Positions 21,932 to 55,241 of a stretch of DNA of 64,000 nucleotides are shown piece after piece. Position numbers and translations under genes: made by a program. The notes beneath the pieces were generated by a model, which was given only the letters and a program-made list of their open reading frames with translations, was not told the origin of the DNA and did no database searches. How positions within the stretch are numbered: position 1 is the first letter of the stretch; each line of letters opens with the position of its first letter. The DNA is taken from contig CM000433.1 of NCBI GenBank assembly GCA_000165345.1, forward strand, positions 960,001-1,024,000. Direction: 5' to 3'.

Positions 21932-23416
21932 ATGGATAGAGAATTCTTTGTTTTATTGGTAATAGCCATACTGATGAGTTTGAGAATAAGTTGTTATAAA
22001 TGCGATAATCAAGCTGTGAAAAATGTAAAACCAATAATAAGTGAATTATTTGATATGTTACTGGAAAATATTGAAGCTAAAAGAAAAGAAGAAATTCAAT
22101 TTAATGAAACTTTTCTTGAGAATGGAAAGGACTTGAATCATTATATAGATAATAATAAGCCAACAAAATTAACTAAAATTACAAATACAATATATGAAGC
22201 AAATCAAGACAAAGTCGAAATTATTGATAGAGAAATATCAATCTTAGATGGTCAAATGAGCTTGAGACTAGGAATTGTTGTTAATTTGCTCTATGGAAAC
22301 CAATCAGTTTTGGTACTTAAACTATGGAATGAAAGTTACTCTAAGATTAGTAAAAATTACAGTCTATTGTGTTCTTCATCCAACATAAATAGTAACTTTA
22401 TAACGAATCCTTCAGAATATAGAGAAATTCATAATACCAATAAGAATTATTTATTATTTGAGATGAAACAAGAAATATCAAATATAAACGAAAAGACATT
22501 TTTGTTATGCCTTTCAGATAGTATCACCAGTAATCATTCAATATATATTACAAAACTTTCATTTTCTTCTAATAATGAACTAAAGGAAACTAATCATTAT
22601 AAAGAAAAGAACCTAAATCAATTTGAGGAATTCGAATCTAAAAGTGATCTAGTAGGAAAACATGAAATTCTTGAATTAAATCAGCAAGAAAATGATGATC
22701 AGATTCTGGTCAGAACAAAAGTACCAAGTGGTCAGAATTGCTCAGATTTCAAGCTTATATTACTAAGTAATCAGAAAAACTCAATTACAAATGGCGAGCT
22801 ACTTCCTGAAACAAAAACTACAAACAACTATGAGAATATTTGCTTTTGGAGTTTAAAACTCGAAAATACTCAATTCAAAGATTCAAATCTACTGGAAATT
22901 GTGCAAAGACACAAAAACAGTGGGGCTACATTTACTATAGCCAAAGTGAATCCAACCCCTATAAACTATAAATATGGTAAAAGGAGTCAATTCATGCTTT
23001 CTAAGTCATTCTTATTTAAAATACTCCTTTTGGTTCTAAACCTGATTCCTGTTACACTGCTTACACTAGGAGTCTATTTAATTATTGCCGAAATTTGGAC
23101 AATCATATCCTCAAAAGTCTTAGAAAATAAGAAATGTCTTAGTAACGCTATATTCAAATCTAGTAAATGTCAACAAAGAACTAATGTTTCTAAAAAAACT
23201 ATAAGCAATAGAGAAAATGATACCAATAATAACTGGATTGACAAAAGAAAAGAAACAAAACCAATTCAATTCTCCAGCTTTAACATTGTTACCAGCAAAA
23301 ATCTTAATTCCGAAGAATCTGGATTCTCATCAGGAGAAAATGAGCCAGTTGTCAAAGGTGACCCCTACAGATATTTTGACTCTGATTGCTCAATTAGCAC
23401 TCACACAGGTATTTAG
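21932..23416 (+). CDS. Hypothetical type-I membrane or secreted protein (signal peptide, one C-terminal TM, N-glycosylation sites)
   Basis: N-terminal hydrophobic leader MDREFFVLLVIAILMSLRISC and a C-terminal TM segment ILLLVLNLIPVTLLTLGVYLIIAEIW. No homology recognised. Confidence 0.5.
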   Translation: MDREFFVLLVIAILMSLRISCYKCDNQAVKNVKPIISELFDMLLENIEAKRKEEIQFNETFLENGKDLNHYIDNNKPTKLTKITNTIYEANQDKVEIIDREISILDGQMSLRLGIVVNLLYGNQSVLVLKLWNESYSKISKNYSLLCSSSNINSNFITNPSEYREIHNTNKNYLLFEMKQEISNINEKTFLLCLSDSITSNHSIYITKLSFSSNNELKETNHYKEKNLNQFEEFESKSDLVGKHEILELNQQENDDQILVRTKVPSGQNCSDFKLILLSNQKNSITNGELLPETKTTNNYENICFWSLKLENTQFKDSNLLEIVQRHKNSGATFTIAKVNPTPINYKYGKRSQFMLSKSFLFKILLLVLNLIPVTLLTLGVYLIIAEIWTIISSKVLENKKCLSNAIFKSSKCQQRTNVSKKTISNRENDTNNNWIDKRKETKPIQFSSFNIVTSKNLNSEESGFSSGENEPVVKGDPYRYFDSDCSISTHTGI

Positions 23417-23446: not shown

Positions 23447-26400
23447 TTATCCCCTCTTCTTCAAAACCCAATAGTTCTCCTTACTAGTCACGTTATTTGA
23501 CTTATTTAATGTGCAAATCTGTTTTAAGATCTTCCTAAATAAGCCATGATTTGAATCAGGTATTAACTCCCCAAAACTACTCAATAAATCATCTGTACTT
23601 GTCCTTATCCCCAATCTCTCCCTCTTCATAAAATACTCCGTCAACCTTCTTCTTATCGTCTCCTCGTCCCATCCACCTGTATTATATCTATTACCATCCT
23701 CACTACCTTCCAAGGAATTGAACCCGCCTCCTCCCTGTATAACTCGTTGGCGCTTCAAATTACGCAAAATAAAGGAACTTGGCGCGCCCGCCTGACCGGA
23801 TTTACCGGTCCATGTGGGAACACTATAATCATAATTGCTTCTTTCAATTTCTGATTGTTTTATCAACTCAACCGAAGTTTTAATAATTTCATTTGTGGCT
23901 TCTGCCAGATCATCACTTAAATAACCACTGTACAAGTGTGTGCTTCTTTCAGTATGAGAATTTGCCGAGCAACTACTATTGTTTGAACTACCAATACTAT
24001 TAGAAACCAAGTTATCGTCATTATTGTCACCTAAAATACTCATTATAGCGTTATGCTCAGATTTAGCATCAAAAGTTATCTCTCCAAAAAGATTTAGTTC
24101 ATCATTTATTACTTCTTTCTTGCCTGAATTTTTTGATCTACGATTGTCAAAATCATCATATCCTCCCTTATCGTACATATCAAAGTCATCAAAATAGCTA
24201 GAGTGTGTATTTCCGTCTTTTCTTTGTCTTGTTTTTCCTCCCCAAATATTTTTAATATTTCTTATGTAATTAGAAACTAACTTTGGATCAGAAACGTAGT
24301 TCTTTGGTTTTCTGGGTTTCTTAACTAACTCGTTAAAATTTGTCCAATTTAAGCTTGATTGGCTTTTTGGATCTTTAAGTATTTGTTTTGCAATAAACTC
24401 TTTAAAAAGTTGTCTTTGGAAAATCTTCTCTTCTATTGTGTCTCTAGTGATTAGTCTATAAACTATTACTTCTTTCTTTTGTCCTATTCTCCAACATCTT
24501 TCTTTAGCTTGAACATCTGTCATAGGGTTCCACCAAGGATCATATAAAATTACTCTATTTGCTCCAGTAATATTTAAACCAACTCCTCCAACTCTAGATG
24601 TTAAAATAAATAAGAAAATAGATTGATTTTGATTAAATCTTTTTACTAATGAAAATCTTGTACTTAAAGGAGTCGAGCCATCTAAAGTTAAAACATCTTT
24701 ATTTGGTATCAACCCAAGATCTTTCTCTAAAAGAGCAGAAAGAAGCTTTAAAGTTCTTACTCCTTGAGTAAAAATAAGTACCCTGTGTTCTTTCTTATCT
24801 CTCCAAAGTTTCAATATTGACATTAATGCCTGATATTTTCCACTATCTCTTCCATTAACATTAATATTTCTTAAATATAAACTATTCTCATCTGAATTAT
24901 CATCAGATCTTCTATTTCTTAAAGTTCTATTCCAACTTAATTCAGTATTTAAGCCATTTTCGTCTTCTTGATCTTCATAAAAATCAAAATCTGAATCAAT
25001 TTCTCCATTTTTGTTTTGTCTTCTAACTAATTTTAATAGTTCTGGATGATTACATGCTTCTCTTAAAATATTTAATAAAGCAAAATACTTTGAAATCCCA
25101 TACATCTTGTTCTTAACTAATTGTTTAGCTTGTAGAAGATCCAAACAATTACAATAAACATCATATTGTACAGGAGTTAAATTACAAAACAATACATGTT
25201 CTGCTTGAGATGGTAACTTTAATATATCTTGTAGTTCATGTTTTCTCCTTCTTAATATGCATGCTTTAATAAGTTCTTGTAGAATTCGAGTGCAATTTAA
25301 AGCTCTCATAGTTTGAACTTTTGCAGCATTCCTCAATTCTGCTTGTTTAATAGGAAGTACAAATTGTTGTTCAAAAACAGGTAATGTCCCAAGTTTTCCT
25401 GGATAAACAAAATCAATAAGGCTCCATAACTCCTTTAAATCATTTTGTATTGGTGATCCAGATAATAAAAGCCTATTACAAGTACCTAATGATTTTACTG
25501 CTAAAGTAATTCCAGAATCAGGATTTCTAATTTTATGTCCTTCATCTAAAATTACATAAAACCAACTAATTTGTCTCAAAGTTTGTAAATTACGTCTTAA
25601 AGTTTCATAAGTTGTAATAACCAAAAGCTCAGTACTTACTTTCTCCACCTCTCTAAGTTGATCAAACATTGTTCTTCTTTCACTTTCACCTTTTCCATGA
25701 AACAAAATAATTCTTATTGGATAGTACCATTTATTAAATACTTCAATCCAATGAGAAATTAATGTAGCAGGAAGTACCAAAAGTACCATTTTACAGTTAT
25801 TTGTATCAAAACTGGATTCTTCGTATTCAACAGTACTTGATGTATTTAAGGATGATAAAGATTCATCTGGTAACTTTTTAATAAATTCTGTCTCAATTTT
25901 AATATTCGGTACCATATTCATACTAGAAAAATTTGATCTAGAAACTATTTCTGAATTTGGATTTAATTCTGATTTTAATTGAGATTTAATAAAGTTTGCT
26001 TCATCATCTAGAAAAGCTTCTTGGTTACGTTTAAATGTGATAAATAATGCTGCAATAAATGAAGTCACAGTAATAGACTTTCCTAATCCCATTTCATCTG
26101 CAAGTATTCCTCCATGGTTATTGCAATATAATCCCCACATCCAAAGTACTCCCTCTTTCTGATGTGGATATAAGGCATTCCAGATTTTGTCCCAAATGAA
26201 TAGCTGACTATTTTCTGACTCTCTTGAAATCTTAATGATCTTTAAACTATCTCTTTCACAATTTGTATGATAAGTGCTATCACTATTGGTATTACTACCT
26301 TCAAGACTTTCATTAATTTGGTTAATTCTGTTTCTGCTTTTCAAAACTCTAGATTTGTATCTTTCTAAGTCTAAGTCATCTTTTACTTCGAGACATTCAT

Positions 26401-26992
26401 CTACAAAGGTATCCATTTCAATAACATGTTCAGAAACAGGTTCAAGTTCAGATTCAGGTCTAGATTCTGAGATAGATTCAAGTCTAGATTCAGGCCTAGA
26501 GTCGTTTCCAAGATCATTTGCAGATGTATGAATTGATTCACCTTGATTGCTTGAAATATTCCCGTTACCTAATTCAGTTTTAGTAAGTTTGGATATAGAA
26601 GTTTCTTCTTCAAGTCCAGATAAAGTATCTTTATCTAGGAAAGAGCTTCCAAGCCTTTTGGAAGCTCTTTTCCTCTTTGATGGCTTATTTGATGTATTAA
26701 AATGGGATTTCATTTGTTCAAAAATATTGTTACTTACTTCGTTCGCATCTACCAAAGAAACTCCAAGATCTCTGAGTTCCTGAGCCTCTGAGTTATCAAA
26801 GTAAGTATCTAAAATATTTTGGTTTTCATAGAATGAGACAATTCCGTCATCTTGGATCCCCTCATCTTCCTTTTCCTGTTCTTTCTCATATCCTCCTTCC
26901 TCTTCTTCAAAATTACCCAATTCTGTTGAATTATTTCCATTTGTCGGGCTCTGATCAGCCTCTTTCTTAATATAAACTATAGATTCATCCAT
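23447..26992 (-). CDS. ERCC6: SNF2-family DNA-dependent ATPase, ERCC6/CSB/Rad26-like (transcription-coupled repair)
   Basis: Motif I LADEMGLGKS and motif II ILDEGHKIRNPDS. Motif III LLSGSPIQNDLKELWSLIDFVYPGKLGTLPVFEQQF is near-identical to the CSB signature. Helicase C block GGVGLNITGANRVILYDPWWNP...QAKERCWRIGQKKEV. Acidic Ser/Glu-rich N-terminus. Confidence 0.8.
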   Translation of the reverse strand: MDESIVYIKKEADQSPTNGNNSTELGNFEEEEGGYEKEQEKEDEGIQDDGIVSFYENQNILDTYFDNSEAQELRDLGVSLVDANEVSNNIFEQMKSHFNTSNKPSKRKRASKRLGSSFLDKDTLSGLEEETSISKLTKTELGNGNISSNQGESIHTSANDLGNDSRPESRLESISESRPESELEPVSEHVIEMDTFVDECLEVKDDLDLERYKSRVLKSRNRINQINESLEGSNTNSDSTYHTNCERDSLKIIKISRESENSQLFIWDKIWNALYPHQKEGVLWMWGLYCNNHGGILADEMGLGKSITVTSFIAALFITFKRNQEAFLDDEANFIKSQLKSELNPNSEIVSRSNFSSMNMVPNIKIETEFIKKLPDESLSSLNTSSTVEYEESSFDTNNCKMVLLVLPATLISHWIEVFNKWYYPIRIILFHGKGESERRTMFDQLREVEKVSTELLVITTYETLRRNLQTLRQISWFYVILDEGHKIRNPDSGITLAVKSLGTCNRLLLSGSPIQNDLKELWSLIDFVYPGKLGTLPVFEQQFVLPIKQAELRNAAKVQTMRALNCTRILQELIKACILRRRKHELQDILKLPSQAEHVLFCNLTPVQYDVYCNCLDLLQAKQLVKNKMYGISKYFALLNILREACNHPELLKLVRRQNKNGEIDSDFDFYEDQEDENGLNTELSWNRTLRNRRSDDNSDENSLYLRNINVNGRDSGKYQALMSILKLWRDKKEHRVLIFTQGVRTLKLLSALLEKDLGLIPNKDVLTLDGSTPLSTRFSLVKRFNQNQSIFLFILTSRVGGVGLNITGANRVILYDPWWNPMTDVQAKERCWRIGQKKEVIVYRLITRDTIEEKIFQRQLFKEFIAKQILKDPKSQSSLNWTNFNELVKKPRKPKNYVSDPKLVSNYIRNIKNIWGGKTRQRKDGNTHSSYFDDFDMYDKGGYDDFDNRRSKNSGKKEVINDELNLFGEITFDAKSEHNAIMSILGDNNDDNLVSNSIGSSNNSSCSANSHTERSTHLYSGYLSDDLAEATNEIIKTSVELIKQSEIERSNYDYSVPTWTGKSGQAGAPSSFILRNLKRQRVIQGGGGFNSLEGSEDGNRYNTGGWDEETIRRRLTEYFMKRERLGIRTSTDDLLSSFGELIPDSNHGLFRKILKQICTLNKSNNVTSKENYWVLKKRG

Positions 26993-27857: not shown

Positions 27858-29942
27858 ATGCCAATAGGACATTACAATAGTAATAAAATAGTAGATAAAG
27901 TACTAGAGTCAGAACTAACTAATCCAAGATTACTAGCTTGGTCTGTAATAATTAAAGATGGGCAACCAGTTTATAATAATGATATTTTAAGGGTTAGCGA
28001 TAAAATAACAGCTCTTGAACAGAATTCTCTAAACTCAAATAGTTCTTTAGAGAATTCAAAACATTTTCTTTCTCCAAGAAGTAAGGAAATACGGTCTAAA
28101 AAGGAGGAAAGCAACTTTTCTAAGACTGATGTTGGTAATTTTTTATGTAAAACAGTGAATGAAGAAAGTGGAGTAAATGAAATAAATTGCAATATAGTTA
28201 AAAAAGATTTCAGTATATGGAGATGTTTATATTGGCCACAAATTGCAATAAATCCAATATATTCTGGTGGATATGGTAAGATGAGAATAGCTCTATGCTT
28301 GAATAAGATAATAACATCATTACAAGAAAAAAATCAGAATCGTGGATCGTTTGGAAGAGTAAATCAAGAAAAAGAAGAGCATATCGAATTATTGCCATAT
28401 GTAAGAATTTTATATAATAAAGAACTTTTATTTCAGTCTTGTATTGTGAAAAAGAACATTTGTATAATTCTTGAGATAGAAGTCCACCATCCACTAAGCA
28501 GAATTATTATTGAAATCTACGACTTAGATGATTCAGATCCATCTTTAATCAACAATAATGATGATATGATCGGTTATATAATAATACCAGTAGGAGCACA
28601 TTCAAATAGAAAACCACTTGAGAGCAGATTAATAATAGCTTCGGATGATGATGCTAGGATATTATATATTAGAAAGTCCCAACAAAAAAAAGTTCATAAT
28701 GAAAATTTAATGGCTCAGAAATTACTTAGATTTCCAATAAAAAGCTGTGAAAGGCAATTGAATAAGAATGAACCAGAACAAGATAGATTTAGTGAATTTA
28801 AGGATGAAGAGGATATGTTAGGAGATGATCCAGTAAGAAATTTTAGTAAAGAAAGTCTGGATGGGCATATTATGAATGAATTACCAAATAGTATATATTT
28901 TGAGCTGGCAAATCAGATGGTCAAAGATGCTATCGAATTTAGCCATAGTGCTGAAATAAAGTATAAATCAATTGGAATACTTCAAGAGCCTCATTGTAGC
29001 TTTGTAATTCAGGTTTTCTCAGAAATTAAATGGTCAAGACTTTCGATTATTCCACGCGAGATTATTGCTCTTTATCTTCCGGAACCTGAAGCTGGGCAAA
29101 ACTTTAAATATAATAACAATAGTAAGAATTATAGCTTATACGATAAAAAAATGAATGATATTAATCTTGAAATTAATATAAAGGCGATAATTAACTCAAT
29201 GATATTATTAAAAGAAATATATGATTCTGAATGTGTCTTTCCATACAAAGAATATATTTGGAAGCTTTTGAATTGGGAATCACAATTGCACTCTTTGTTT
29301 GCTTTAAGTATTATATGGTATTTATCATTTAATCCCAAATATATTTTCTCGTTTGTATTTTTACTTGGACTAATAATATTATTCATAAGTTTTGATAAAA
29401 GGAATCTTGCTTTAAATTTAGAAAGTTCAGTTTCCAAAAATTTAAAAACTTTAAATTCTTTAGGAAATGATGATGAATTATTAGAAGATAATGTTTTATG
29501 CTCTCCAATTAAAAATAATAACCACATAAAACTTCAATCTTTAAGTCCCAATTCAATAATTATTGACAGCTATGAAGCAAAGAAGTCAGTAGAAAGTGTT
29601 GACTTTATAATTTTGGAGAATCTTTTAAAATCACAAATTTTTTCACCAAAAACTATTAAATATATCAACAAATTGTCTTATATACTTGAGAAATCAGCGA
29701 TATTTATTCATGAAATGATTAAACTCCACTTTTGGAATAATTCTTTTAAAAGTTTAGTATTAACTTGCGTATATTCAGTACTTCTTCTTATATCATTAAC
29801 ATACTCGAATGAATTCTGCAAATATATGCAGTATTTTTTTCTGATAATAATTCTTCTTCCATCAACATATTTCCTTCCTCAAATTAAAGGAATAATAAGA
29901 ATTATCAAATCATATAAGAAATTTAAGAGATTGAAAAGATGA
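27858..29942 (+). CDS. Hypothetical protein with a possible C2-like domain and C-terminal TM helices
   Basis: Segment IIIEIYDLDDSDPSLINNNDDMIGYIIIPVG resembles a C2 beta-sandwich Asp cluster. Two or three hydrophobic helices lie near the C-terminus. Weak evidence. Confidence 0.3.
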   Translation: MPIGHYNSNKIVDKVLESELTNPRLLAWSVIIKDGQPVYNNDILRVSDKITALEQNSLNSNSSLENSKHFLSPRSKEIRSKKEESNFSKTDVGNFLCKTVNEESGVNEINCNIVKKDFSIWRCLYWPQIAINPIYSGGYGKMRIALCLNKIITSLQEKNQNRGSFGRVNQEKEEHIELLPYVRILYNKELLFQSCIVKKNICIILEIEVHHPLSRIIIEIYDLDDSDPSLINNNDDMIGYIIIPVGAHSNRKPLESRLIIASDDDARILYIRKSQQKKVHNENLMAQKLLRFPIKSCERQLNKNEPEQDRFSEFKDEEDMLGDDPVRNFSKESLDGHIMNELPNSIYFELANQMVKDAIEFSHSAEIKYKSIGILQEPHCSFVIQVFSEIKWSRLSIIPREIIALYLPEPEAGQNFKYNNNSKNYSLYDKKMNDINLEINIKAIINSMILLKEIYDSECVFPYKEYIWKLLNWESQLHSLFALSIIWYLSFNPKYIFSFVFLLGLIILFISFDKRNLALNLESSVSKNLKTLNSLGNDDELLEDNVLCSPIKNNNHIKLQSLSPNSIIIDSYEAKKSVESVDFIILENLLKSQIFSPKTIKYINKLSYILEKSAIFIHEMIKLHFWNNSFKSLVLTCVYSVLLLISLTYSNEFCKYMQYFFLIIILLPSTYFLPQIKGIIRIIKSYKKFKRLKR

Positions 29943-29983: not shown

Positions 29984-31540
29984 CTATATGAATCTGAAGT
30001 ATGGTATATATTCAATAGAGTTTGCCATTTCAATCCTTTCACTGCTAGGATTTTCTGATAAATATTCACCTTGAGTTGATTTTGGAGTCGTTATAATCTT
30101 TTGTACTAAAAATAATAACATTTCGTGAATAAAAAAAATTGCAATAATTATCCAAAAAAATTGATCAATATTTATCTCACTTTTTTCTCCATTTATATTT
30201 GATACTATATTTTTTGCCACGTCATTTTTCCAAACATAATTTTTTATTGCATGCAAATATGTGGGCACATTAAAATTACCGGTATTTGCATGCAACCATT
30301 GCATATCATCACTATTTGCGTTGAAAGGAATAATGATAATAATAAGTATAGAAATAAGAAATTCCATAGATCTAAGTGAAAGCAAGGAGCATGTAATACA
30401 AACGTTATGTTTAATTCTGTTTTGAGACGTTAATAATAAGGGAAGAACTCCAAATATGTTAATAAAAAGTCCAATAATTAAATTAGTTATTGGAGAATTG
30501 TGGAATGAAAAACACATACCCATAAAAATTAATTGTAAAGTTGTTGTAATTAAAAAATTCCATGGCCAAAAAGACATTTGAATTAGTAAATATATTATTG
30601 AAAATTTTAAGAGAATGTCTAGAAATTGATACATTATCAATAAAAATGAATATATAAATACTAGTCTATATATTGACCATTTTGATTTTTCTGATAATTT
30701 TATTGGTATTACTCTTGGAGCTATAACATACTTATTGTAATATATATCTGAGTTATTCACTGAAAAAAATAATTCGTTTCTGAGATTTAATTCATTTAAA
30801 TCTTCATTATTTGTTAAATTAACAAATTGAAGATTTTTTAATAAAGAAGTACTTGATACAAAGTACTTCAACCAGGAAATACTTAAAGGATTAATTGCAT
30901 TCTCAAGTAATAACTGTTCATCTCTAATTAAATCATTCAATATTTGAGAATTATTACCAATATCTTGTCTACTTTCTCTAATTAATGATGTAATATTAAG
31001 GTTTCTTCCATTCATAAAGGATTCATCCTGGATATGTGGCCCTATTTCTTCATTAGATACTACCCTTTTAAGCTCATGGCAATAAAATATATCCATTATA
31101 ACATCAAATATTGATAAATAAGTTAAATGAACCATTGAAATTACAAATCCTGTAAAACATAACTTGACTAAATCTTCAAAATACCATTTTTCTAAATCAT
31201 TGGGACCAACGTTTATACTACCCATACTTAAGCCTATTAAATTAGTAAATGCAAAACTTTCATATCCCATTATCATTATATCTAAAAATACAAATATTAA
31301 AGGTACAGTTTTTAATATAGAAGTAGCTAATCTTTTTTCATTAAATAAATTTTCATATTGATTTAATTCTGAACAATTGAAATAATTATTAAGGATTTTG
31401 TAGAATTGTCTCATGCCTTTTATTACATTTCCAAATCCTATGTCAATAAAAACTAACAAGCCGTTAATAACATTCTTTTCATAAAATCTTGAAATTGAAT
31501 TATAGATAGATGGTGAATAAATAATAAAGATTACAACCAC
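29984..31540 (-). CDS. Hypothetical polytopic membrane protein, 518 aa
   Basis: Long ORF with 8 or more hydrophobic helices. Convergent with the preceding gene, with only about 40 bp between stops. Confidence 0.5.
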   Translation of the reverse strand: MVVIFIIYSPSIYNSISRFYEKNVINGLLVFIDIGFGNVIKGMRQFYKILNNYFNCSELNQYENLFNEKRLATSILKTVPLIFVFLDIMIMGYESFAFTNLIGLSMGSINVGPNDLEKWYFEDLVKLCFTGFVISMVHLTYLSIFDVIMDIFYCHELKRVVSNEEIGPHIQDESFMNGRNLNITSLIRESRQDIGNNSQILNDLIRDEQLLLENAINPLSISWLKYFVSSTSLLKNLQFVNLTNNEDLNELNLRNELFFSVNNSDIYYNKYVIAPRVIPIKLSEKSKWSIYRLVFIYSFLLIMYQFLDILLKFSIIYLLIQMSFWPWNFLITTTLQLIFMGMCFSFHNSPITNLIIGLFINIFGVLPLLLTSQNRIKHNVCITCSLLSLRSMEFLISILIIIIIPFNANSDDMQWLHANTGNFNVPTYLHAIKNYVWKNDVAKNIVSNINGEKSEINIDQFFWIIIAIFFIHEMLLFLVQKIITTPKSTQGEYLSENPSSERIEMANSIEYIPYFRFI

Positions 31541-34154: not shown

Positions 34155-37100
34155 ATGCATACGAAAAGGAAAAGGAAGTCTGATACCGACCAGCCATCTG
34201 AACCTAATAAGTTCATGGCAGTTGATGGGCAAATTACTTCTAATGTCTTTAATGATTGGAATACTGAAATTTCTGTTATTACAGAAAGGTACCAGGATGA
34301 ACTCGCAACTAAAGTTAGTCGTTTGTATGAAGGAATAGGGAAAGATTTAGAGGCTACCATATTTGATTATTCTCAAAACGAGGATGAATATATATTAGGT
34401 TTATTGAAGAATACTGATATAGAAAATAACATTCAGAGTATAATAGACTGCCTTGAAAATTACAAAGAGTCCTTGAATTCAAAAAAGCGAAATCATGAAG
34501 GTGGCTCTATATTGGAGGATCTTAGAAAAAATCTTTTAAAGAGTTATTCCAGAATTGCATCTCACAAATTTGTTAAAGATGGTGAATTTGTTATTAAAGA
34601 TTGGACTTACTTCTTACCAATCTTACTTTCAAGCTCTGTTTCTGATATTGAGATCTCCATTATTCTAGACAAGCTTCCAAAAGTAATTAGGTTTCTTATT
34701 AAAACTATTAGAAAGTTTCAGTTTATAACTGGTAAATGCGTTTCTGTTGAAGCTATTGATACTATTAATATGTATAGGAACATTCTGAATGAGTTTACCA
34801 AGGCTAATAAAATGTATCATAATATTCAAAATATCTCAATTGAAAGATCAATCATAGAAATTCATGATCCACTTACCTTATATATTAAGAACATCATTAA
34901 TTACTCTGATAAAACTAAGTTATCTTCAAGCTTTATTCCATTAAGATTTGGTAAAGATCATACTGAAGGAGCAGGATCTTCTAAAACTAGTTTTAAATTA
35001 GATCTATTATCCAATTCTGGTGATATATTGTATATGATCTATGGAAATAACATCTCTTCTCTTGGTGTTTTTGGAACTAACTATTTAAGTAGAAAAATGA
35101 ATTTGGATAATTTATGGCAATTATCTATCTTCAAAAACCAATCTATTGGTCTTATACTTAGTAATCACAAAGAAAGGGATGATAAATCTCAAGACTTTGA
35201 AATTGAAAATCTTGATAGCTTTATAGGGAGTTTGGGATATGGTTATTCATCACTTGATTCTCTTAAGCCTATGAACCCAAGGCCAGAGCTAAACAAAAGA
35301 ATATCAAATAATATGCTAAGACTACAAATTAGCAAGAAGGTATATAAGAGATATAACAAAGAAGTGAACCCTAATACAAAAGCAATATCTCCTCTATCTC
35401 TTAATCCACTTATTCAGAAGTTTACTGGTTTCAATTCAGTAATTGAAGATGAACAAAAGTTTGGATTTAGAGATTATTCTAAATTTCCTTCGATTCCTAA
35501 CAAAGAACCAGAGAGAGCTGAGCTTATCTTTTCTAATGGAGCAAAATTACAAGAAGAAAAGGTTCCTCTTGGGTTCATATCTACAATAAGACAGCAGAAA
35601 TATGGTAAAAGAGAACTGGAGTTAGTTATTTTAGATACAAAAGAGTGTAGTAATTATATAGCAAATCAACATAAAGCTTCAAAAGCTAGAAATCTAAGAT
35701 TTGAAGAGTATGGATTGTTTTGGAAAACTATTCCAGAAAAGAATGGTAATTACAACTTTAAAATGATTCCATTACGTACTTGTAGTGCCTCAATTCATCA
35801 TTCAACCAAGTTTAAATCTCATCTATATTATTCCAGATTTCTATTGGAACAGCTTGTAAACTCAAATTGGAAGAAGAGGATTATTACAAAGAACAAGAAA
35901 TACTACAAGCTTTCTTCTTTAGTTAATGGAGGTTTTTTAAGTAAATCACAAAAGGAAACTGTTAATAAGATCACAAAAATTATATTAAATAATGGCTTAT
36001 GGGAGAATTATAGTGACATTGTACCAAAATTATTAACAGGTACCGATAAAAGAATTAGTGGCCACGAAATTGAGGAATGGGAGGATTTTGATGAAAATAA
36101 TGAATTTGATCAAGAAATGTATAGATTATCATCTGAATGTAGGAATAGTTCAAGTTCGAAATCATCAGAGTTTTATGGAAAGTATTTAAAATTAAGTTCA
36201 AAGAATTATAAGCTAGTTTCAAAAAGATGTCAAAAAATGTTGGCTAAATATATATTCAAAGAGTATCCAAGATTTTTGACCCAATATTTTAAGATTAGAA
36301 AGGAATGGAAGGAATATAATAGAAGCGAGACTCAAAAGAGAAATAAACAAAATGTTAATAATTCGTCTAGACTACAGTTGGATATTATTGGATATTCTGG
36401 AGAAAAGAACTTAAAAGCACAGTTCTCTAACTTTGAGAATCTAAAAATTAAGCATGAACCAAATGAATTAAAGACAGAAAATTCGAAAGATCCGCAAGTT
36501 CTTCATTTGATTAAACTAGAAAAGAAGCAAGAACAGAATACATTAACAGTTTTACCAAAGTTTGATTCCAAGTTACCATTGAATCAGATATATAAACTAG
36601 AGAATTTCATATCTATAGAGTTATTCAATAAAATTAAGATGGAATGGACAAAAAGTACAGTTAGCATATATAGTGGTCAATTAAGTCACTTTTCAAGGAT
36701 ATTATTAAATAATTTGAATAATTCTTCAATTTTGAACATAAAAGTTAAATCATTCTTTTTAAAGCTTATAATTTACATTGATTGGCTTATATATCTGATT
36801 AATCATTCAAATAAATCATTTGGTGGAGCTAGAGCAATTCAGAAATGTTTACAAGCATCTTTAGATTCTCAAACAAACAATCAGAATTCAAAATATCAGA
36901 GTAATTTAAGAATTCCAATAGAATTTTGCAATTGGATTATTGATTCATTTTTATCAAAATACCAGACAGAGAATCTTCAGACAAGATTCAGCTTTTCTAC
37001 AGCTGGAGAAAGTAAACTTTTTGCAACTATTCTATGGCTATCTAACTTTGTCAATGCTCATTCACACAATATTAATTACACAGATTACAACGGTGATAAC

Positions 37101-37325
37101 TTTGATATTCCTGTATTTCTTCCTTCTTCAGAGCCTTCTCCAATAGAATTTTCAGATCTTTTACTTCAAGATTTGAAGGATAAATTTACCAAAAAGTTTA
37201 GAAGTATTGCTCATGCAATGGGCTTCAGATCAACAGTTCCTCCCCCAAGAAGATTTAAATCAAAGAATTATATGATACCTCCAAACATTACCAGCGTAAT
37301 TTTGAACGAGTTCCCTAGACTATAA
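34155..37325 (+). CDS. Hypothetical protein, 1056 aa, no domain recognised
   Basis: Long uninterrupted ORF with a basic N-terminus (KRKRK). Confidence 0.6.
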   Translation: MHTKRKRKSDTDQPSEPNKFMAVDGQITSNVFNDWNTEISVITERYQDELATKVSRLYEGIGKDLEATIFDYSQNEDEYILGLLKNTDIENNIQSIIDCLENYKESLNSKKRNHEGGSILEDLRKNLLKSYSRIASHKFVKDGEFVIKDWTYFLPILLSSSVSDIEISIILDKLPKVIRFLIKTIRKFQFITGKCVSVEAIDTINMYRNILNEFTKANKMYHNIQNISIERSIIEIHDPLTLYIKNIINYSDKTKLSSSFIPLRFGKDHTEGAGSSKTSFKLDLLSNSGDILYMIYGNNISSLGVFGTNYLSRKMNLDNLWQLSIFKNQSIGLILSNHKERDDKSQDFEIENLDSFIGSLGYGYSSLDSLKPMNPRPELNKRISNNMLRLQISKKVYKRYNKEVNPNTKAISPLSLNPLIQKFTGFNSVIEDEQKFGFRDYSKFPSIPNKEPERAELIFSNGAKLQEEKVPLGFISTIRQQKYGKRELELVILDTKECSNYIANQHKASKARNLRFEEYGLFWKTIPEKNGNYNFKMIPLRTCSASIHHSTKFKSHLYYSRFLLEQLVNSNWKKRIITKNKKYYKLSSLVNGGFLSKSQKETVNKITKIILNNGLWENYSDIVPKLLTGTDKRISGHEIEEWEDFDENNEFDQEMYRLSSECRNSSSSKSSEFYGKYLKLSSKNYKLVSKRCQKMLAKYIFKEYPRFLTQYFKIRKEWKEYNRSETQKRNKQNVNNSSRLQLDIIGYSGEKNLKAQFSNFENLKIKHEPNELKTENSKDPQVLHLIKLEKKQEQNTLTVLPKFDSKLPLNQIYKLENFISIELFNKIKMEWTKSTVSIYSGQLSHFSRILLNNLNNSSILNIKVKSFFLKLIIYIDWLIYLINHSNKSFGGARAIQKCLQASLDSQTNNQNSKYQSNLRIPIEFCNWIIDSFLSKYQTENLQTRFSFSTAGESKLFATILWLSNFVNAHSHNINYTDYNGDNFDIPVFLPSSEPSPIEFSDLLLQDLKDKFTKKFRSIAHAMGFRSTVPPPRRFKSKNYMIPPNITSVILNEFPRL

Positions 37326-37987: not shown

Positions 37988-40900
37988 ATGAATGTGACTT
38001 TAGGGTCCATACTGTTCCCTGAACGTCGAAAGGTAGTGGTAGATACTAGAAAGGGGCTTCATAACAAGAGAAAGAAGCAGGTAAATGCTCAGAAAAACCA
38101 GGAACAAACTTCCAAGCAATTTACTACGCGGCTTCTTTTGGATGACGAAACAATTGCTCCAAATGATTTTTTGACCCCATTTCCAAGTGATGATGTAAGA
38201 AACACAGAGCAATTTTGGGAATACTTAGAGCGTGTGTTTTATCCTGTAGATGAGAGATGGATTAGTATATTGGATCTTTCAGCAAGGCCACGGAATTTGG
38301 AGCCAAGTGAAACATGTATAGGGTTACATTTTGCTTATAGGTGGGCATTGGTAGATTTATTTGATACTAGCGAACTTTTTAAATTGGTTGGGAATAGAAA
38401 TAAGATTTTTAAGAATACCTTAGAGAAATGTAAGAATTTATCATCTGATACTAAAGCAAATAGTAATAGCGGTAGTAATAGATCAGGCGGAAAAGACCAA
38501 GTTTTGGATAAATCAGAGGATTGCCAACCAGATAATTTGGAAAGTTCAGATTTAGTAGAAGAACAGAAGGTTTTAAGTTATTTGGAGTTTCTTGATCTTC
38601 CAACACTTGAGCTTATAGGAATAGACCCAGCGGTATTGGGAGGAGTGAATACAAATGGGGACAATTTGGTAAAACAATCAGATAGTACAAATCAGAAAAA
38701 GGGGGCTTTAAATAATCCATATTTTGAGGAATGGAAATTTCTCTACAAAAGATTATGTTTTATTGAGAAGGAGGTTGACTCTATGCTTTTAAAGCTAACA
38801 GATAGTGTTAGTGAGAACATCCATAAGGACAACTCCAGAAAGTTACTTCAAAGACATCAAAAAAAGAAATGTAGACAATTCCTATTAAAAGTGATGCATT
38901 ATCATAGTATGAGACAATTTGTGGATTCTCTGGAGGAGGTTTTATACTTTGATGAGAATACTGGACAGTATTTGACAACTTGGGATGATGGTGAGGCTGT
39001 TAGAGCCGCATGGATGAGTCAGGATCAGCTTTTACAGCTTCTTTTATTTAGGCCAAACTCTACAGAAAGTAAATATTCTGTTTCAATCCCAAGTGAGTAC
39101 ATTCCTTATGCAAGATCTTTAGACACTCATTGGCTTAAATACTTATTAGACTCTGGTTTAACAATGATTAGCGATGATTCAAATAATCCTCAAGATGACG
39201 ATAGGCTTGGGGATACTTTGAATCTAGATACACCTTCTAAGCCTAAAGATGGTTGTATTGAACTTTCAAGGCATCCTCTTTGTCATTATTGTAGAAGAAG
39301 TTGCAAGAGGCTTAACTATTCTAGGTGCCCATCAAAACTTAAACCTTTAAATCTTGGAATTAATCCTTCAGGTCTTAACCAAACTACACAAGCTCAAAAT
39401 CCAAACTCTAATTCTATTTTAAATAATAATAACTCTTTAAAGCTACCAGGAACTTCAACATCTACTAGCGCATCCAATATTTACTATTCAAGATCTCTTA
39501 TTCCATGGAGAGTCCCAAAGTCTCAAAGTAATATAGAAAATAGTGACCATTCTGAGCCAATTCATATAAATAGCAATAATTATAACCAAAATCAATTCCA
39601 ATTTGGAAGTAAATCAGGAAAATCTGTTAAGCCCAACAATAGATCGTCAATTGGAGGGAATTCTTGTGGTTCTGGAGCATCTTACTTACTTAATGTGAAT
39701 AAATCTCATGTATGTAATATATGCACTGATTTTGAATCAAGTCTGAATGAATCTGTTTCTGCTCCTCAGGAAGAAATCTTAGTTAGTAGAGCCTACTCTC
39801 CCAATAATTGTTGGAGAATGTACTGTTCAGAATGCATTATGCATAATTTTTCCTCAATAATTAAGCAAAAGTATTCAAATGGAGTGGTTTTGAGGTATTA
39901 TTGCCCTTTTTGTAATGGTGCTTGTAATTGTGAGAGGTGCCTCAGAAATCAACAAATTCGAAAAATTAAAAACTACTTGAAGTCACGTTTCTGTGGATAT
40001 ACATTTCAATGTTCGATATCCAGCTGTGTAATTCAAAACGAACTCAGCTGGTATGACTTTCTCAAAGATTTTGGCGGAGACTCATTATTTCCGAATATTA
40101 ATGATAATAGCACTTATAAGGAAAACAATAATTTATTAGGAAATAATGAAACGGCATTAGTGAACGATTTAGGTGAAATTGATGAATCTATGGTTAATCC
40201 CAGCAACTTAGCAGTGGTTTCTTATATTAACAATGCAAACAGGAGGCTTTCCGTCGCAGAAAACACACACCTAGGCTTTATTTGGCTTCAAGCTAATAAT
40301 ATTCCATTCCAAAAGCCTACTCCTTCCTCATCAGGAGTGAATGCAAATATCAATGACTCAAACTCCAAAAAAACAACCACACTATCCAGTGCTCTATCAG
40401 GAAGCTGTGCATCCGACCCCACTAAACTAGTATCTAAGAATAAGTCGAGAAGTAATAGGTCCTCAATTAACGGAACTCAAAAGAACAGAAGAAATTCAAA
40501 TGTCCAAAGCAACTTTGAAGATGGTGATTCTGGTCATTCAAATAATAATAAATCTCAACAACCTACACAATCTGCTCCATCTAATTCCTCCATGTTTTCA
40601 AGTATGGGCAGGCCCGCCTTTAACATTAAAGTAGGAGGCGCCCAAAATATACCGCCCTCAATTCATATACCTCGCGAAGTATTAAATGAGCCAACGCATG
40701 CATCAGGAGCTTCGGTACTTTGGAGTTTAAGGTCGATTTTAATCAATAATGTGAATAAGTACCATAAGGAATGCTTGAATAATTTAGAGCGTTGGGAGAG
40801 TATCCAGGAATTATATAATAGGAAGAGGGTAGAACTGGAGAGTTACTTTGAGGAGCAGCTTTCGAAGCTAAACTTAATGGACGACTGGATTCGTTCAATA

Positions 40901-42082
40901 TCATTCACAGAAACTAATAAGAGGTTTATAATGAGGAAGATGCCATTATTGTGTTGGGCTGCAGACATCCCATCCGCAAAAGCTTTTAATTTTGACGACT
41001 ACCCTCAGTTGTTGCCAAACAATAACGTTGTGGAGATGATTGAACATATTCAGAATTTTGTAAACAATGGTATCATTTCGGAAGATCTACCAACTCATCA
41101 AATTTTGGGTCTTAGTGAGATTAGTGAAGGTGATGGGATTATTGGAGTATCACAAAAAACTACTCCAAGTCTTAAACTAATTGACAAGTTACCAGGAATG
41201 GTTACTAAAAACTCTCCTAGTTCAGTTATGGAGTTTCTAATGAATTCAATCTCTGAAATACAAAATATTGTAGTAAAGACAAATCATAACACTTCCAAAG
41301 ATGAGTCATCAAAGGCAAATAAGATCCAAAGAAGCTCAAAAAAAGACAAATCTAACTCTAAAAATTCTGTTCAAAATAAGCTTCCGAACTGTGATGTTGT
41401 AAACCCAGATGAAGTAAAGATTTCAAATTGTAATAATGATTTGATTTCCTCCTCCTCTTCTATTGCTGAGGCTGATGGAAATCATTTTTACAGTAACTCA
41501 CCTATTAATGCTGAATTTTTATCTAAAAACCACGGTATGCTTGAAACAGCCACTTCCACTGGTCAAAACGATCCTTCTTTAATTACCAGGTCATCAGTTG
41601 GAGATGGGATCCAAAACCCTGATAGTAGTCACTTGCCTAACTTCAGCCTTGTTGAATGTCAAAAATCCTCTAATAATAATCCCTTTTTCCATGGGGGTAG
41701 CAACTCATATATGTTAAATGAAGGCTCTATCGATCCATTCCAGTCTTATTCTAGTAAGACTATCCCAAGCCAGGATCCTGGAGCTGTTGATGGTGCCCAA
41801 AATAAATCTAGGAAAAGAAAGTCCTCTTTGGAACTAAATTCTGTAGAAATATTAACTCCTGAACGCAAAAGGGAGCTTGCCTTGAAAAGAAAACGCGACA
41901 GGGAAACTATCCGAAGAGCAATGAAAAAAAACAGTCATCTTTCCTCATCAAGTCCCACTTCTCCTAATGCTATTGGAGCAATGGGTTTCAATGGCATGGA
42001 GGAAATTAATAGTTTGAATGGTGACGGAACAACTTTTAGTATTAGCAGCAATGGCAGCAGTTATGGCTCTCCCCAACTGTAA
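37988..42082 (+). CDS. Large Ser/Asn-rich nuclear-type protein containing a CDCA7-like zf-4CXXC_R1 zinc-finger domain
   Basis: Cys cluster CNICTDFE...CWRMYCSECIMHNF...YYCPFCNGACNCERCLRN matches the CDCA7 C-terminal pattern FCGPCLRNRYGE...WVCPPCRGICNCSYCR. An additional CHYCRRSC...C lies upstream. Basic KRKR-rich C-terminus. Confidence 0.5.
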   Translation: MNVTLGSILFPERRKVVVDTRKGLHNKRKKQVNAQKNQEQTSKQFTTRLLLDDETIAPNDFLTPFPSDDVRNTEQFWEYLERVFYPVDERWISILDLSARPRNLEPSETCIGLHFAYRWALVDLFDTSELFKLVGNRNKIFKNTLEKCKNLSSDTKANSNSGSNRSGGKDQVLDKSEDCQPDNLESSDLVEEQKVLSYLEFLDLPTLELIGIDPAVLGGVNTNGDNLVKQSDSTNQKKGALNNPYFEEWKFLYKRLCFIEKEVDSMLLKLTDSVSENIHKDNSRKLLQRHQKKKCRQFLLKVMHYHSMRQFVDSLEEVLYFDENTGQYLTTWDDGEAVRAAWMSQDQLLQLLLFRPNSTESKYSVSIPSEYIPYARSLDTHWLKYLLDSGLTMISDDSNNPQDDDRLGDTLNLDTPSKPKDGCIELSRHPLCHYCRRSCKRLNYSRCPSKLKPLNLGINPSGLNQTTQAQNPNSNSILNNNNSLKLPGTSTSTSASNIYYSRSLIPWRVPKSQSNIENSDHSEPIHINSNNYNQNQFQFGSKSGKSVKPNNRSSIGGNSCGSGASYLLNVNKSHVCNICTDFESSLNESVSAPQEEILVSRAYSPNNCWRMYCSECIMHNFSSIIKQKYSNGVVLRYYCPFCNGACNCERCLRNQQIRKIKNYLKSRFCGYTFQCSISSCVIQNELSWYDFLKDFGGDSLFPNINDNSTYKENNNLLGNNETALVNDLGEIDESMVNPSNLAVVSYINNANRRLSVAENTHLGFIWLQANNIPFQKPTPSSSGVNANINDSNSKKTTTLSSALSGSCASDPTKLVSKNKSRSNRSSINGTQKNRRNSNVQSNFEDGDSGHSNNNKSQQPTQSAPSNSSMFSSMGRPAFNIKVGGAQNIPPSIHIPREVLNEPTHASGASVLWSLRSILINNVNKYHKECLNNLERWESIQELYNRKRVELESYFEEQLSKLNLMDDWIRSISFTETNKRFIMRKMPLLCWAADIPSAKAFNFDDYPQLLPNNNVVEMIEHIQNFVNNGIISEDLPTHQILGLSEISEGDGIIGVSQKTTPSLKLIDKLPGMVTKNSPSSVMEFLMNSISEIQNIVVKTNHNTSKDESSKANKIQRSSKKDKSNSKNSVQNKLPNCDVVNPDEVKISNCNNDLISSSSSIAEADGNHFYSNSPINAEFLSKNHGMLETATSTGQNDPSLITRSSVGDGIQNPDSSHLPNFSLVECQKSSNNNPFFHGGSNSYMLNEGSIDPFQSYSSKTIPSQDPGAVDGAQNKSRKRKSSLELNSVEILTPERKRELALKRKRDRETIRRAMKKNSHLSSSSPTSPNAIGAMGFNGMEEINSLNGDGTTFSISSNGSSYGSPQL

Positions 42083-53714: not shown

Positions 53715-55241
53715 TTGAAAAAAATAAAAGTCTGTATGCCGTTATATTTGGTTTGGTTTGTTTTACACCCTGATTATCATGAATTTAGACTTCAGGAATT
53801 GGAATCTTTAGCTGAATGTTTTGGAGTTGAAAAAAATAAGCTTTGGGTCACTAATTTACCAGAATACGTTTCATGGCATCATCGTAAATATGATAGACCT
53901 TTAGCAAATGATCATAGTAGTTCTTTTGCATGGGTATGTTTACCAAATGAAGATATTGCTTTACGTATCTTGCAAAGAAGTGTTCTAGTAAGAGGTTTTA
54001 TGCAAGTTTGGGCAAGTGGAACAGATCATGAACAAGTTGAGAAAGTTCTTAAAGAAGATGAATATGTTAAAAAAGAATTTCTTAGAAAGTATATACATGA
54101 TGATGTTGATTTTTCTTGGAAAGTTAAAAGTATTGGAAAAAAGTTATCTAGACCTGAACAAGTTTCAAGAATGAATCATTATAGTTTTCTATTTAAAGGT
54201 ACTGAGACTGTTAATTTAAAAGATCCTTCTTTAAGTCTGGGAATTTTTGAAGATTGGAGATCTATTCATAATCAAGAAAAACTTCCAATAGAAGGAATTT
54301 CTAAGGAGCAAATTTCTAAGCTTCAATCTACTATGCTTAAAAGGGTTTATCTTGGAAGAATAATAGAGAATCAAAGCTCTACTGATCTTGGAGATAAATC
54401 TCTATGGTGGTTGAAGTATACTTTAAATAAGAGACCAATATTAGGTCCAACAACTATGGATAATGAATTAGCCTTTATAATGTGTAATATTGCTCAAGTT
54501 AAAAAAAATGATATAGTTTTTGATCCATTTTGTGGAACTGGTGGTATCCTTATTTCAGCTTCTCATTTTGGAGCTACATGTTTTGGATCTGATCTTGATC
54601 TTAGAGTAATTAATGGATGGTTTTGTTCTTATGTTAATCCACATATGATTAAAGATCAATCTATTAAAGAAGACCATTCAAAATCTATTTATTCTAATTT
54701 TGACTATTATAAGCTTGAAAGACCTGGTATTATTAGAATGGATATTTCTCAGAGTTCAATTAGATCCTCATGGATAGATGCCATTGTTTGCGATCCTCCT
54801 TATGGAATTAGAGCAACTTCTAGAACCACTAATTCTAATTCAAATCAACCTACTAGTGTTTATTCAGGTAATAACTATATCCATACATTTATTCAGGATT
54901 ACAATTATAGGAAATCTTCACCATCATCATCATCATCTTCTATATCAAATACTCATCCATCTACAGGAAAGAATACTTTTGGGTCTCATCAGCCAATTGA
55001 TGAAATGATCTTTGACCTATTATCATTTGCATCTAAGACTTTGGTTATTCATGGACATCTTGTCTTTCTTTTACCTCTTATGGTATCAGATGCCAATATT
55101 GTAATTCCTAATCTTATTGAAAATTGGAAGCATATCTTTTCTATTGACTTTCCTTATATGCAAACATTAGGAGGAGGTCTTGGTAGATTGTTAGTACATA
55201 TGAAACTAATCAACAAAAATGAAGAATTATTTGGGATCTAA
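53715..55241 (+). CDS. TRMT11: tRNA (guanine10-N2)-methyltransferase Trm11/TRMT11
   Basis: SAM motif VFDPFCGTGGILISA and catalytic VCDPPYGIRA (DPPY). An N-terminal THUMP-like region. A poly-Ser insertion is encoded by a (tca)n run. Confidence 0.7.
   Translation: MKKIKVCMPLYLVWFVLHPDYHEFRLQELESLAECFGVEKNKLWVTNLPEYVSWHHRKYDRPLANDHSSSFAWVCLPNEDIALRILQRSVLVRGFMQVWASGTDHEQVEKVLKEDEYVKKEFLRKYIHDDVDFSWKVKSIGKKLSRPEQVSRMNHYSFLFKGTETVNLKDPSLSLGIFEDWRSIHNQEKLPIEGISKEQISKLQSTMLKRVYLGRIIENQSSTDLGDKSLWWLKYTLNKRPILGPTTMDNELAFIMCNIAQVKKNDIVFDPFCGTGGILISASHFGATCFGSDLDLRVINGWFCSYVNPHMIKDQSIKEDHSKSIYSNFDYYKLERPGIIRMDISQSSIRSSWIDAIVCDPPYGIRATSRTTNSNSNQPTSVYSGNNYIHTFIQDYNYRKSSPSSSSSSISNTHPSTGKNTFGSHQPIDEMIFDLLSFASKTLVIHGHLVFLLPLMVSDANIVIPNLIENWKHIFSIDFPYMQTLGGGLGRLLVHMKLINKNEELFGI

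Follow-up and report, generated by a model that had tools for sequence, protein, structure and literature searches.

What is a zinc finger resembling that of CDCA7 doing in Cryptosporidium parvum, an organism in which, according to a 2025 review, no cytosine methylation is detectable (Gissot 2008) and the one cytosine-5 methyltransferase gene, DNMT2 (cgd5_2100), probably acts on RNA? The question is raised by a cysteine (Cys) block at 39281..39950 (+) in a 64,000-nucleotide stretch of contig CM000433.1 (positions 960,001 to 1,024,000 of assembly GCA_000165345.1; hereafter the window). The block lies within an open reading frame (ORF) of 1364 amino acids (aa), and an initial annotation had seen in it a CDCA7-type zinc finger, in animals and plants a reader of hemimethylated CpG. 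Our comparisons indicate that this ORF carries a diverged three-zinc module of the zf-4CXXC_R1 family, to which the CDCA7 fold belongs, that a long loop splits the module in two, and that the protein falls in an alveolate branch of the family distinct from CDCA7. We are highly confident in this combination of domain assignment, split and placement.

37988..42082, + strand: the whole ORF, 1364 aa, corresponding to C. parvum EAK87583.1 / CPATCC_002351.

The ORF product is identical to EAK87583.1 of C. parvum Iowa II, for which the sources give the names 'hypothetical', 'large protein with possible RING domain' and 'RING domain-containing protein'. Translation of 39281..39950 (+) yields exactly CHYCRRSCKRLNYSRC ... 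CWRMYCSECIMHNF ... YYCPFCNGACNCERCLRN, which is residues 432-654 of the ORF, and no ORF of at least 100 aa is present on the opposite strand there. Full-length orthologues are present in nine further Cryptosporidium sequences, and the taxa that have one include C. hominis (97%), the chipmunk genotype, C. ubiquitum, C. canis, C. felis, C. bovis, C. ryanae and C. muris (36-41%). The protein is conserved in blocks. Between C. parvum and C. muris, identity is 37% for the whole protein, 68% for aa 1-135, 50% for aa 240-395, 65% for aa 419-452 (the N-terminal half of the finger, or N-half), 16% for aa 453-600 (the loop), 58% for aa 742-777 and 61% for aa 889-1010, and it is highest, at 82%, for aa 601-668 (the C-half of the finger). 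Given this pattern, and the value for aa 601-668 in particular, the Cys block is real, coding and strongly constrained. Eleven Cys and the His that follows the first of them (C432, H433, C435, C447, C608, C613, C616, C639, C642, C646, C648 and C651) are invariant and in the same order in each of the ten Cryptosporidium sequences, C. muris with its 37% overall identity included. The exact translation and these invariant residues, H433 included, uphold the block as first described, and its conservation across Cryptosporidium, proposed at that stage as a check, bears it out (82% to C. muris in the C-half).

To which family of zinc fingers does the block belong? On the natural EAK87583.1 sequence, PF10497, the Pfam model of zf-4CXXC_R1, was the sole Pfam family at E<=10. 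A profile built from the Cryptosporidium finger only had seven genuine matches outside Cryptosporidium (E 4e-5 to 9e-4 among 1.84e9 representative proteins), all seven of which pass PF10497 independently at 26-41 bits. A further entry in that list, P0011, was rejected as a tandem-repeat artefact, and a later protein search with the finger alignment returned three ciliate-like proteins only. The metagenomic relatives P0031 (30.9 bits) and P0033 (29.2 bits) clear PF10497 as well. A family profile made from metagenomic relatives and three Cryptosporidium sequences matched the CDCA7 chains 8YV8_K, 8TLE_A and 8TLK_A at E 1.3e-9 to 5.5e-8, and hhalign aligned the Cryptosporidium-only profile with four class I (CDCA7) fingers over C4-C11, the fourth to eleventh ligand Cys (probability 85%, E 6e-6). 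With PF10497 as sole family and CDCA7 as best structure match (E 1.3e-9), the first assignment to zf-4CXXC_R1 and to the CDCA7 fold family appears sound.

The public names suggest a different family, the RING-type E3 ubiquitin ligase finger, and the cross-braced, Cys-rich topology and weak matches of the family profile to TRIM RING fingers (E 4e-3 to 3e-2) are consistent with them. However, no RING Pfam model matched the natural protein at E<=10, the spacing CxxC-x22-CxxC-x3-CxCxxC is neither C3HC4 nor C3H2C3, and CDCA7 matches about six orders of magnitude better than RING (E 1.3e-9 vs 4e-3). We regard a RING finger as scarcely credible. No unrelated treble-clef or PHD-type finger fitted better either: the best RING, PHD or ADD finger stood at E 4e-3 or worse with the family profile. 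UniRef calls the C. hominis, C. meleagridis and C. muris orthologues 'Zinc-finger domain-containing protein', presumably a sign that automatic pipelines may already tag PF10497.

The zf-4CXXC_R1 finger is laid out over the following features.

39242..39343, + strand: finger N-half, aa 419-452, with C432-H433-Y-C435-R436-R437 ... C447, by homology the CDCA7 ligands C1, His, C2 and C3.
39329..39808, + strand: loop, aa 448-607, Ser/Asn-rich and lineage-specific, inserted between ligands C3 and C4.
39713..39724, + strand: C576-N-I-C579 (CNIC) inside the loop, the first CXXC in Pfam's alignment (575-661).
39809..39991, + strand: finger C-half, aa 608-668, with C608, C613-x2-C616, C639-x2-C642 and C646-x-C648-x2-C651, then a basic helix, RNQQIRKIKNYLKSRF.

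The N-half also supplies R436, the equivalent of the CDCA7 arginine R274. The loop is 160 residues long in C. parvum and 121-173 aa across Cryptosporidium species, consists to 58% of S, N, T, G, Q and P, and contains islands of conservation, namely NIYYSRSLIPW (aa 497-507) and the surroundings of C576 (CNIC). Short relatives (P0031-35) read CH(V)CRR...KC, then 13 residues, then NCHRRFCNDC, whereas in Cryptosporidium the corresponding CHYCRR...RC447 and NNC608WRMYCSEC stand 160 residues apart. BLASTP against the relative P0013 gave two collinear segments that abut in P0013 and lie ~140 aa apart in the Cryptosporidium query. MAFFT, run on the untouched sequences together with relatives, opened one large gap and left exactly 11 invariant Cys columns and one invariant His. 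A hidden Markov model (HMM) built from the non-Cryptosporidium relatives only gave two complementary matches on the natural sequence (model positions 6-28 at aa 429-451 and 22-90 at aa 591-666), and a Cryptosporidium profile scored P0031 at 45.3 bits with the N-half and 31.1 bits without it. The initial annotation was silent on the split, though its start coordinate falls exactly on C432.

The PF10497 scores, taken at face value, speak against the assignment. With a Pfam gathering cut-off of 22.7 bits, the natural sequence stays under threshold (the whole protein scores 18.2 bits and a 250-aa piece 21.3 bits), and natural C. muris and C. bovis orthologues score 13.1 and 11.9 bits. The reason is that the loop separates the two sets of ligands. 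When it was excised, so that the CHYC-half joined the C-half, the score was 25.9 bits for C. parvum and 27.9 bits for C. muris, both above the cut-off; a loose junction gave 22.3 bits and the C-half alone 22.1 bits. The PF10497 scan that had been proposed as a check is therefore negative on the natural sequence and positive on the loop-excised one.

An unannotated intron was considered as an explanation of the loop and ruled out. The loop is in frame and free of stops in ten of ten sequences despite its changes in length, it contains the conserved peptide islands, and its G+C content (0.325) is like that of the coding flanks, with intergenic DNA at 0.23-0.27.

How would a finger divided in this way hold its zincs? 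In the crystal structure of mouse CDCA7, 11 Cys together with a single His coordinate three zincs; this His follows the first Cys immediately and forms the bridge between Zn1 and Zn2, while Zn3 is bound by C3-x4-C4 and C7-x2-C8 (PMC11343032). By homology with CDCA7, Zn1 would be held by C432, C435, C613 and C616, Zn2 by H433, C646, C648 and C651, and Zn3 by C447, C608, C639 and C642, which would place the loop inside the Zn3 knuckle. Pfam domain models would under-call the zf-4CXXC_R1 family because this knuckle tolerates very long insertions.

Could the two halves instead be two independent zinc modules? One would be a Cys4 knuckle (C423, C432, C435 and C447) and the other a CNIC-led module that takes C576/C579 as its first CXXC, with H619 and C675 standing in for the missing His and C3 ligands. 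Pfam's own alignment begins at residue 575, C423, C576, C579, H619 and C675 are invariant, and 11 Cys and one His lie downstream of residue 576. Yet the loop-free relatives have CHxC...C3 only and no equivalent of CNIC, and there is no CXXC in the 30 residues upstream of C4 in the relative from Vitrella. Homology scores, too, drop with CNIC and rise with CHYC: PF10497 gave 20.8 bits with CNIC as the upstream CXXC, lower than the 22.1 bits of the C-half alone, and the non-Cryptosporidium HMM lost 1-2 bits with CNIC and gained 3-8 bits when the CHYC half was fused. CNIC also has Asn, not His, after its first Cys, and so lacks the residue that bridges Zn1 and Zn2 in CDCA7, whereas H433 after C432 is invariant. 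On these comparisons C576/C579 are probably not the ligand pair C1/C2, and two separate modules seem unlikely.

A single split finger leaves four non-canonical Cys, which are invariant in all ten Cryptosporidium sequences: C423 (39254..39256), C576/C579 (39713..39724) and C675 (40010..40012). They have no equivalent in the short relatives, and their number suffices for a fourth Zn(Cys)4 site. Judged by this pattern, they may form an extra, Cryptosporidium-specific site that ties the loop to the flanks of the domain, and this is more likely than a role as ligands of two modules.

Further points weigh against the assignment. The gain from the N-half (3-8 bits) is modest. The link of the Cryptosporidium finger to CDCA7 is transitive, because Cryptosporidium-only profiles recover no CDCA7 chain in the PDB and score human CDCA7 at only 5 bits; a phmmer search with the natural piece placed CDCA7 structures at E 0.21, level with ribosomal protein L33. 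AlphaFold2 predictions were of low confidence, with a predicted local distance difference test (pLDDT) score of 44.8 for aa 565-700 (9 sequences) and 44.9 for aa 419-672 (18 sequences), and a Foldseek search of the low-confidence model against the PDB gave ATRX ADD only, at E>3, which is no match.

Is the protein, then, a CDCA7 orthologue? We compared the residues to which roles have been assigned in CDCA7 (PMC11343034 and PMC11343032), using human numbering anchored on chain 8YV8_K (residues 264-371). All of the Cryptosporidium counterparts are invariant across the genus.

R274, which touches the methyl group of 5-methylcytosine (5mC) and pairs with guanine: R436, kept.
Q275, which keeps out fully methylated CpG: R437.
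G294, which adjoins Zn3: no counterpart; between C4 and C5 stands WRMY, 4 residues vs 7.
R304, a phosphate contact: N620, with H619 adjoining.
N328, which steadies the phosphate-contacting arginines: N647, kept.
S330, a phosphate contact: E649.
R333, a phosphate contact: L652, between R650 and R653.

In the classification of Funabiki et al. 2023, a CDCA7 orthologue (class I) conserves all three residues affected in ICF syndrome (immunodeficiency, instability of centromeres, facial anomalies), namely R274, G294 and R304, and only class I is tied to HELLS and DNMT1. Fingers that have diverged, namely class II with DDT/WHIM, the JmjC type and 'Other', are widespread and unlinked to 5mC reading. 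The Cryptosporidium protein keeps R274 alone of the three ICF residues, and at Q275 and S330 it has R437 and E649, both invariant. By these residues, it is not a CDCA7 orthologue. Like CDCA7/CDCA7L (8TLE, 8YV8), it has 11 Cys and one His in the same order, R436 for R274, N647 for N328 and a basic helix after the last Cys. The spacings differ: 160 residues vs 4 between C3 and C4, 4 vs 7 between C4 and C5, and 22 vs 19 between C6 and C7. Outside the finger there is no similarity to CDCA7/CDCA7L, the 64-kb window shows no HELLS or DNMT1 context, and direct scores are near zero.

The finger also resembles other diverged members of the family. Plant class II (DDR1-3), class III (IBM1/JMJ24) and fungal CDCA7F/DMM-1 fingers likewise have a substitution at the G294 position and a shifted fourth Cys or a shorter C4-C5 spacer, and their roles are not directly tied to 5mC reading. 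Unlike them, EAK87583.1 has no DDT/WHIM, JmjC, RING or chromo domain detectable with Pfam, and the profile scores are 6-10 bits. Class II is defined by a substituted G294 and a fourth Cys shifted C-terminally (Funabiki et al. 2023). The Cryptosporidium finger matches this wording (no Gly, C4 shifted), yet its nearest relatives are filed under 'Other' and it has no DDT/WHIM or CDCA7F-like context.

Where, then, does it belong? The survey of Funabiki et al. 2023 covers 180 species, with six alveolates and no apicomplexan. Under 'Other zf-4CXXC_R1' it enters 4 proteins from Stylonychia, 2 from Paramecium tetraurelia and CEL93640 from the chromerid Vitrella brassicaformis, and it scores each of these species as not detected for CDCA7, HELLS and DNMT1, and Paramecium for 5mC as well; in the published tree the 'Other' alveolate proteins form one clade. 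The finger of Vitrella CEL93640 reads ...GCYCWRMFCSECLNHNFGG...QWICPYCNRICTCERCHRNAQISKVVKY and shares 46% identity with the C-half of C. parvum across 56 aa (E 2e-16). We ranked the reference fingers by their scores with Cryptosporidium-only profiles, a ranking that is not a formal tree. Vitrella came first (52 bits), followed by P0031 (31-45 bits), Stylonychia (28-31 bits) and Paramecium (24-25 bits), then the JmjC type of Naegleria (10 bits), Arabidopsis class II (7-8 bits), Coprinopsis CDCA7F (6-9 bits) and human and Arabidopsis class I (2-5 bits). By these scores the Cryptosporidium protein sits in the alveolate, non-CDCA7 branch of zf-4CXXC_R1, with Vitrella CEL93640 as its closest named member and the ciliate proteins next.

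The likeness extends to detail. The alveolate 'Other' proteins (CEL93640; Paramecium XP_001427761 and XP_001443245; Stylonychia CDW86779 and others) come from hosts without CDCA7, HELLS and DNMT1, and the C-half motif of Vitrella is nearly identical to that of Cryptosporidium (CWRM[YF]CSEC.xHNF ... C.CERC.RN.QI). The ciliate 'Other' fingers have long C3-C4 insertions too, of ~55-115 aa; thus the split is a trait of the clade that has gone furthest in Cryptosporidium. Cryptosporidium differs in its longer loop (121-173 aa) with an extra conserved CXXC, in the much larger size of its protein, with ~700 aa of Cryptosporidium-specific C-terminal sequence, and at the R274 position, which is R in Cryptosporidium and K in ciliates. 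The published Vitrella excerpt (CEL93640zf_Vitrella, Funabiki Figure 2-source data 1) opens 30 residues ahead of C4, and C1, His, C2 and C3 are all absent from it. An insertion may split the domain in Vitrella too, and the published excerpt may be truncated.

The Cryptosporidium protein is the first apicomplexan example of zf-4CXXC_R1 that we could find; in the literature searched, nothing linked this domain with Apicomplexa or with the EAK87583.1 gene, and nothing concerned HELLS in Cryptosporidium. The search of 1.84e9 proteins returned no Toxoplasma or Plasmodium matches, which is weak evidence of absence because CEL93640, with an expected E of 8.5e-9 for the Cryptosporidium profile, was not returned either, so that this library lacks some eukaryote proteomes.

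Metagenomic proteins of 440-515 aa (P0019 and P0031-P0035) are also alike. They are collinear with the N-terminal 400 residues and the finger, and share CH[VY]CRR, a basic residue followed by Cys at C3, and a C4-C5 spacing of 4 residues. They differ in having a C3-C4 spacer of 13 residues, in lacking the C-terminal 700 aa and in passing the Pfam threshold unaided. On two unrelated metagenomic contigs (L002 10001..11434 and neighbours, and the P0031 contig), the short homologue adjoins an HCF101-type gene (DUF59 + ParA + DUF971) on the opposite strand. The contigs that carry short homologues are compact, gene-dense and intron-poor, with long uninterrupted ORFs, and show no synteny with Cryptosporidium.

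Might the protein nevertheless be a true functional equivalent of CDCA7, reading hemimethylated CpG and so pointing to cryptic or stage-specific methylation, perhaps with a SNF2 ATPase other than HELLS? In favour of this, the fold family is the same, none of the 12 ligands is missing, R436 stands where CDCA7 has R274, the residue in contact with the methyl group of 5mC and with the guanine next to it, N647 matches N328, and a complete DNMT2 gene is present. Against such a role, Q275, which discriminates hemi- from full methylation, is replaced invariantly, as are G294, R304, S330 and R333; class I fingers score 2-5 bits; and the same type of protein occurs in ciliates and Vitrella, which are without CDCA7, HELLS and DNMT1. 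5mC has not been found in C. parvum, and DNMT2 is considered to act on RNA. Finally, the only SNF2 gene in the window (ORF 23447..26992, - strand, 12.3 kb upstream) is of the ERCC6/CSB/Rad26 type (E 8e-121), with HELLS/DDM1 at ~1e-56, no better than other remodellers. We think it very improbable that the protein is equivalent to CDCA7 in function.

The claims of the initial annotation about methylation therefore fared unevenly. Its ERCC6-like, non-HELLS reading of the neighbouring ATPase was right. The idea of a CDCA7-type reader of hemimethylated CpG is not supported, in view of the changes of Q275 to R, R304 to N/H and S330 to E, the lack of a counterpart to G294 and the low class I scores. 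Nor is the finger unexpected in an apicomplexan without 5mC, given the precedent of 'Other' alveolates without CDCA7, HELLS and DNMT1, among them Paramecium without detected 5mC. Co-variation with maintenance methylation holds for class I domains (Funabiki et al. 2023) and does not carry over to this finger, in which only R274 is kept.

What might a split, non-CDCA7 zf-4CXXC_R1 protein do? Outside the finger, we noted the following features.

38024..38077, + strand: basic bipartite stretch RRKVVVDTRKGLHNKRKK, aa 13-30, resembling a nuclear localization signal (NLS), inferred from a pattern search only.
38105..39172, + strand: region conserved at the N-terminus, aa 40-395 (but variable at 136-239), which runs collinear with the first 300 aa of metagenomic P0019 and P0031-35.
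40211..40318, + strand: conserved block, aa 742-777, Cryptosporidium only, no known domain.
40652..41017, + strand: conserved block, aa 889-1010, Cryptosporidium only, no known domain.
41864..41896, + strand: basic stretch RKRELALKRKR, aa 1293-1303, NLS-like, likewise from a pattern search only.

The N-terminal region matches P0013 in BLASTP (aa 274-454 against 37-171, E 7e-7) and the short metagenomic relatives at 246-268 bits in a profile search; searches of Pfam and the PDB gave no domain match for it. A profile of the block at aa 889-1010 found nothing in the PDB or Pfam, and a FW..(L/I)..(F)FY motif in common with the ciliate protein P0016 carried no significance (hhalign probability 0.7%). 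Both halves of the finger are strongly basic (K+R 24% and 18%, vs D+E 6% and 3%), and together with the bipartite basic motifs at both ends of the protein this suggests a nuclear binder of nucleic acid. EAK87583.1 is probably nuclear, and the chances that it binds DNA or chromatin are, by analogy with CDCA7, about even. In such a mechanism the loop after the first CXXC, with the invariant R436-R437, would enter the DNA major groove as in CDCA7, and the basic finger would bind DNA or nucleosomal DNA without selecting hemimethylated CpG, a selectivity that is unlikely because Q275, R304 and S330 are replaced. Recruitment of partners would fall to the conserved N-terminal region and the C-terminal blocks. 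According to a recent report (PMC13231166), unmethylated CG-rich DNA is also bound by CDCA7 itself, and a methylation-independent ligand is therefore plausible.

The best explanation of the locus as a whole, and one we consider likely, is a genus-wide, probably nuclear, split non-CDCA7 zf-4CXXC_R1 protein that would bind DNA or chromatin without hemimethyl-CpG selection. Two points count the other way: DNA binding, location in the nucleus and the partners are wholly inferred, and the retention of R436, the equivalent of the 5mC-contacting R274, leaves room for some reading related to CpG or 5mC. R436 as an arginine finger, on a surface that has otherwise been remodelled, could also combine with a Cryptosporidium-specific fourth zinc site (C423, C576, C579 and C675) that staples the loop, to make a new DNA-reading module. 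Its target would be an unmethylated motif with CpG or G in it, or else DNA of non-B shape, and it would direct a chromatin complex in a 5mC-free genome; in a less likely variant it would read a cryptic, stage-specific cytosine modification. Such a module is a rather doubtful proposition.

The genes that neighbour ORF 37988..42082 are ordinary housekeeping genes. A 508-aa ORF at 53715..55241 (+) has a UPF0020/RlmKL-like methyltransferase domain (57.7 bits) and scores 26.5 bits with the N6_N4 DNA methylase model, just under its threshold of 26.7; it is probably a Trm11-type tRNA methyltransferase and not a DNA enzyme. An 865-aa ORF without a Pfam match (15426..18023, +) is located in the 2 kb of highest G+C content in the window (0.384 vs ~0.26 elsewhere). 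Further long ORFs without a Pfam family at E<=1e-3 are found at 34155..37325 (+), 27858..29942 (+), 59827..63117 (+), 29984..31540 (-) and 21932..23416 (+); one long ORF of this kind is the 1056-aa gene immediately upstream of ORF 37988..42082.

What does the finding mean for the parasite and for the family? It corrects a public 'RING domain' annotation for a protein that is conserved genus-wide in an important pathogen, and it extends the non-CDCA7 branch of zf-4CXXC_R1 into Apicomplexa, which were unsampled in the 180-species survey of CDCA7-HELLS-DNMT co-evolution. It offers a clear example of a split three-zinc finger, in which the Zn3 knuckle of the CDCA7 fold tolerates very long insertions. 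Because the same branch is already present in alveolates without DNA methylation, the Cryptosporidium finger gives no evidence for hidden DNA methylation. Instead, Cryptosporidium is a compact, methylation-free system in which to ask what zf-4CXXC_R1 domains bind without 5mC.

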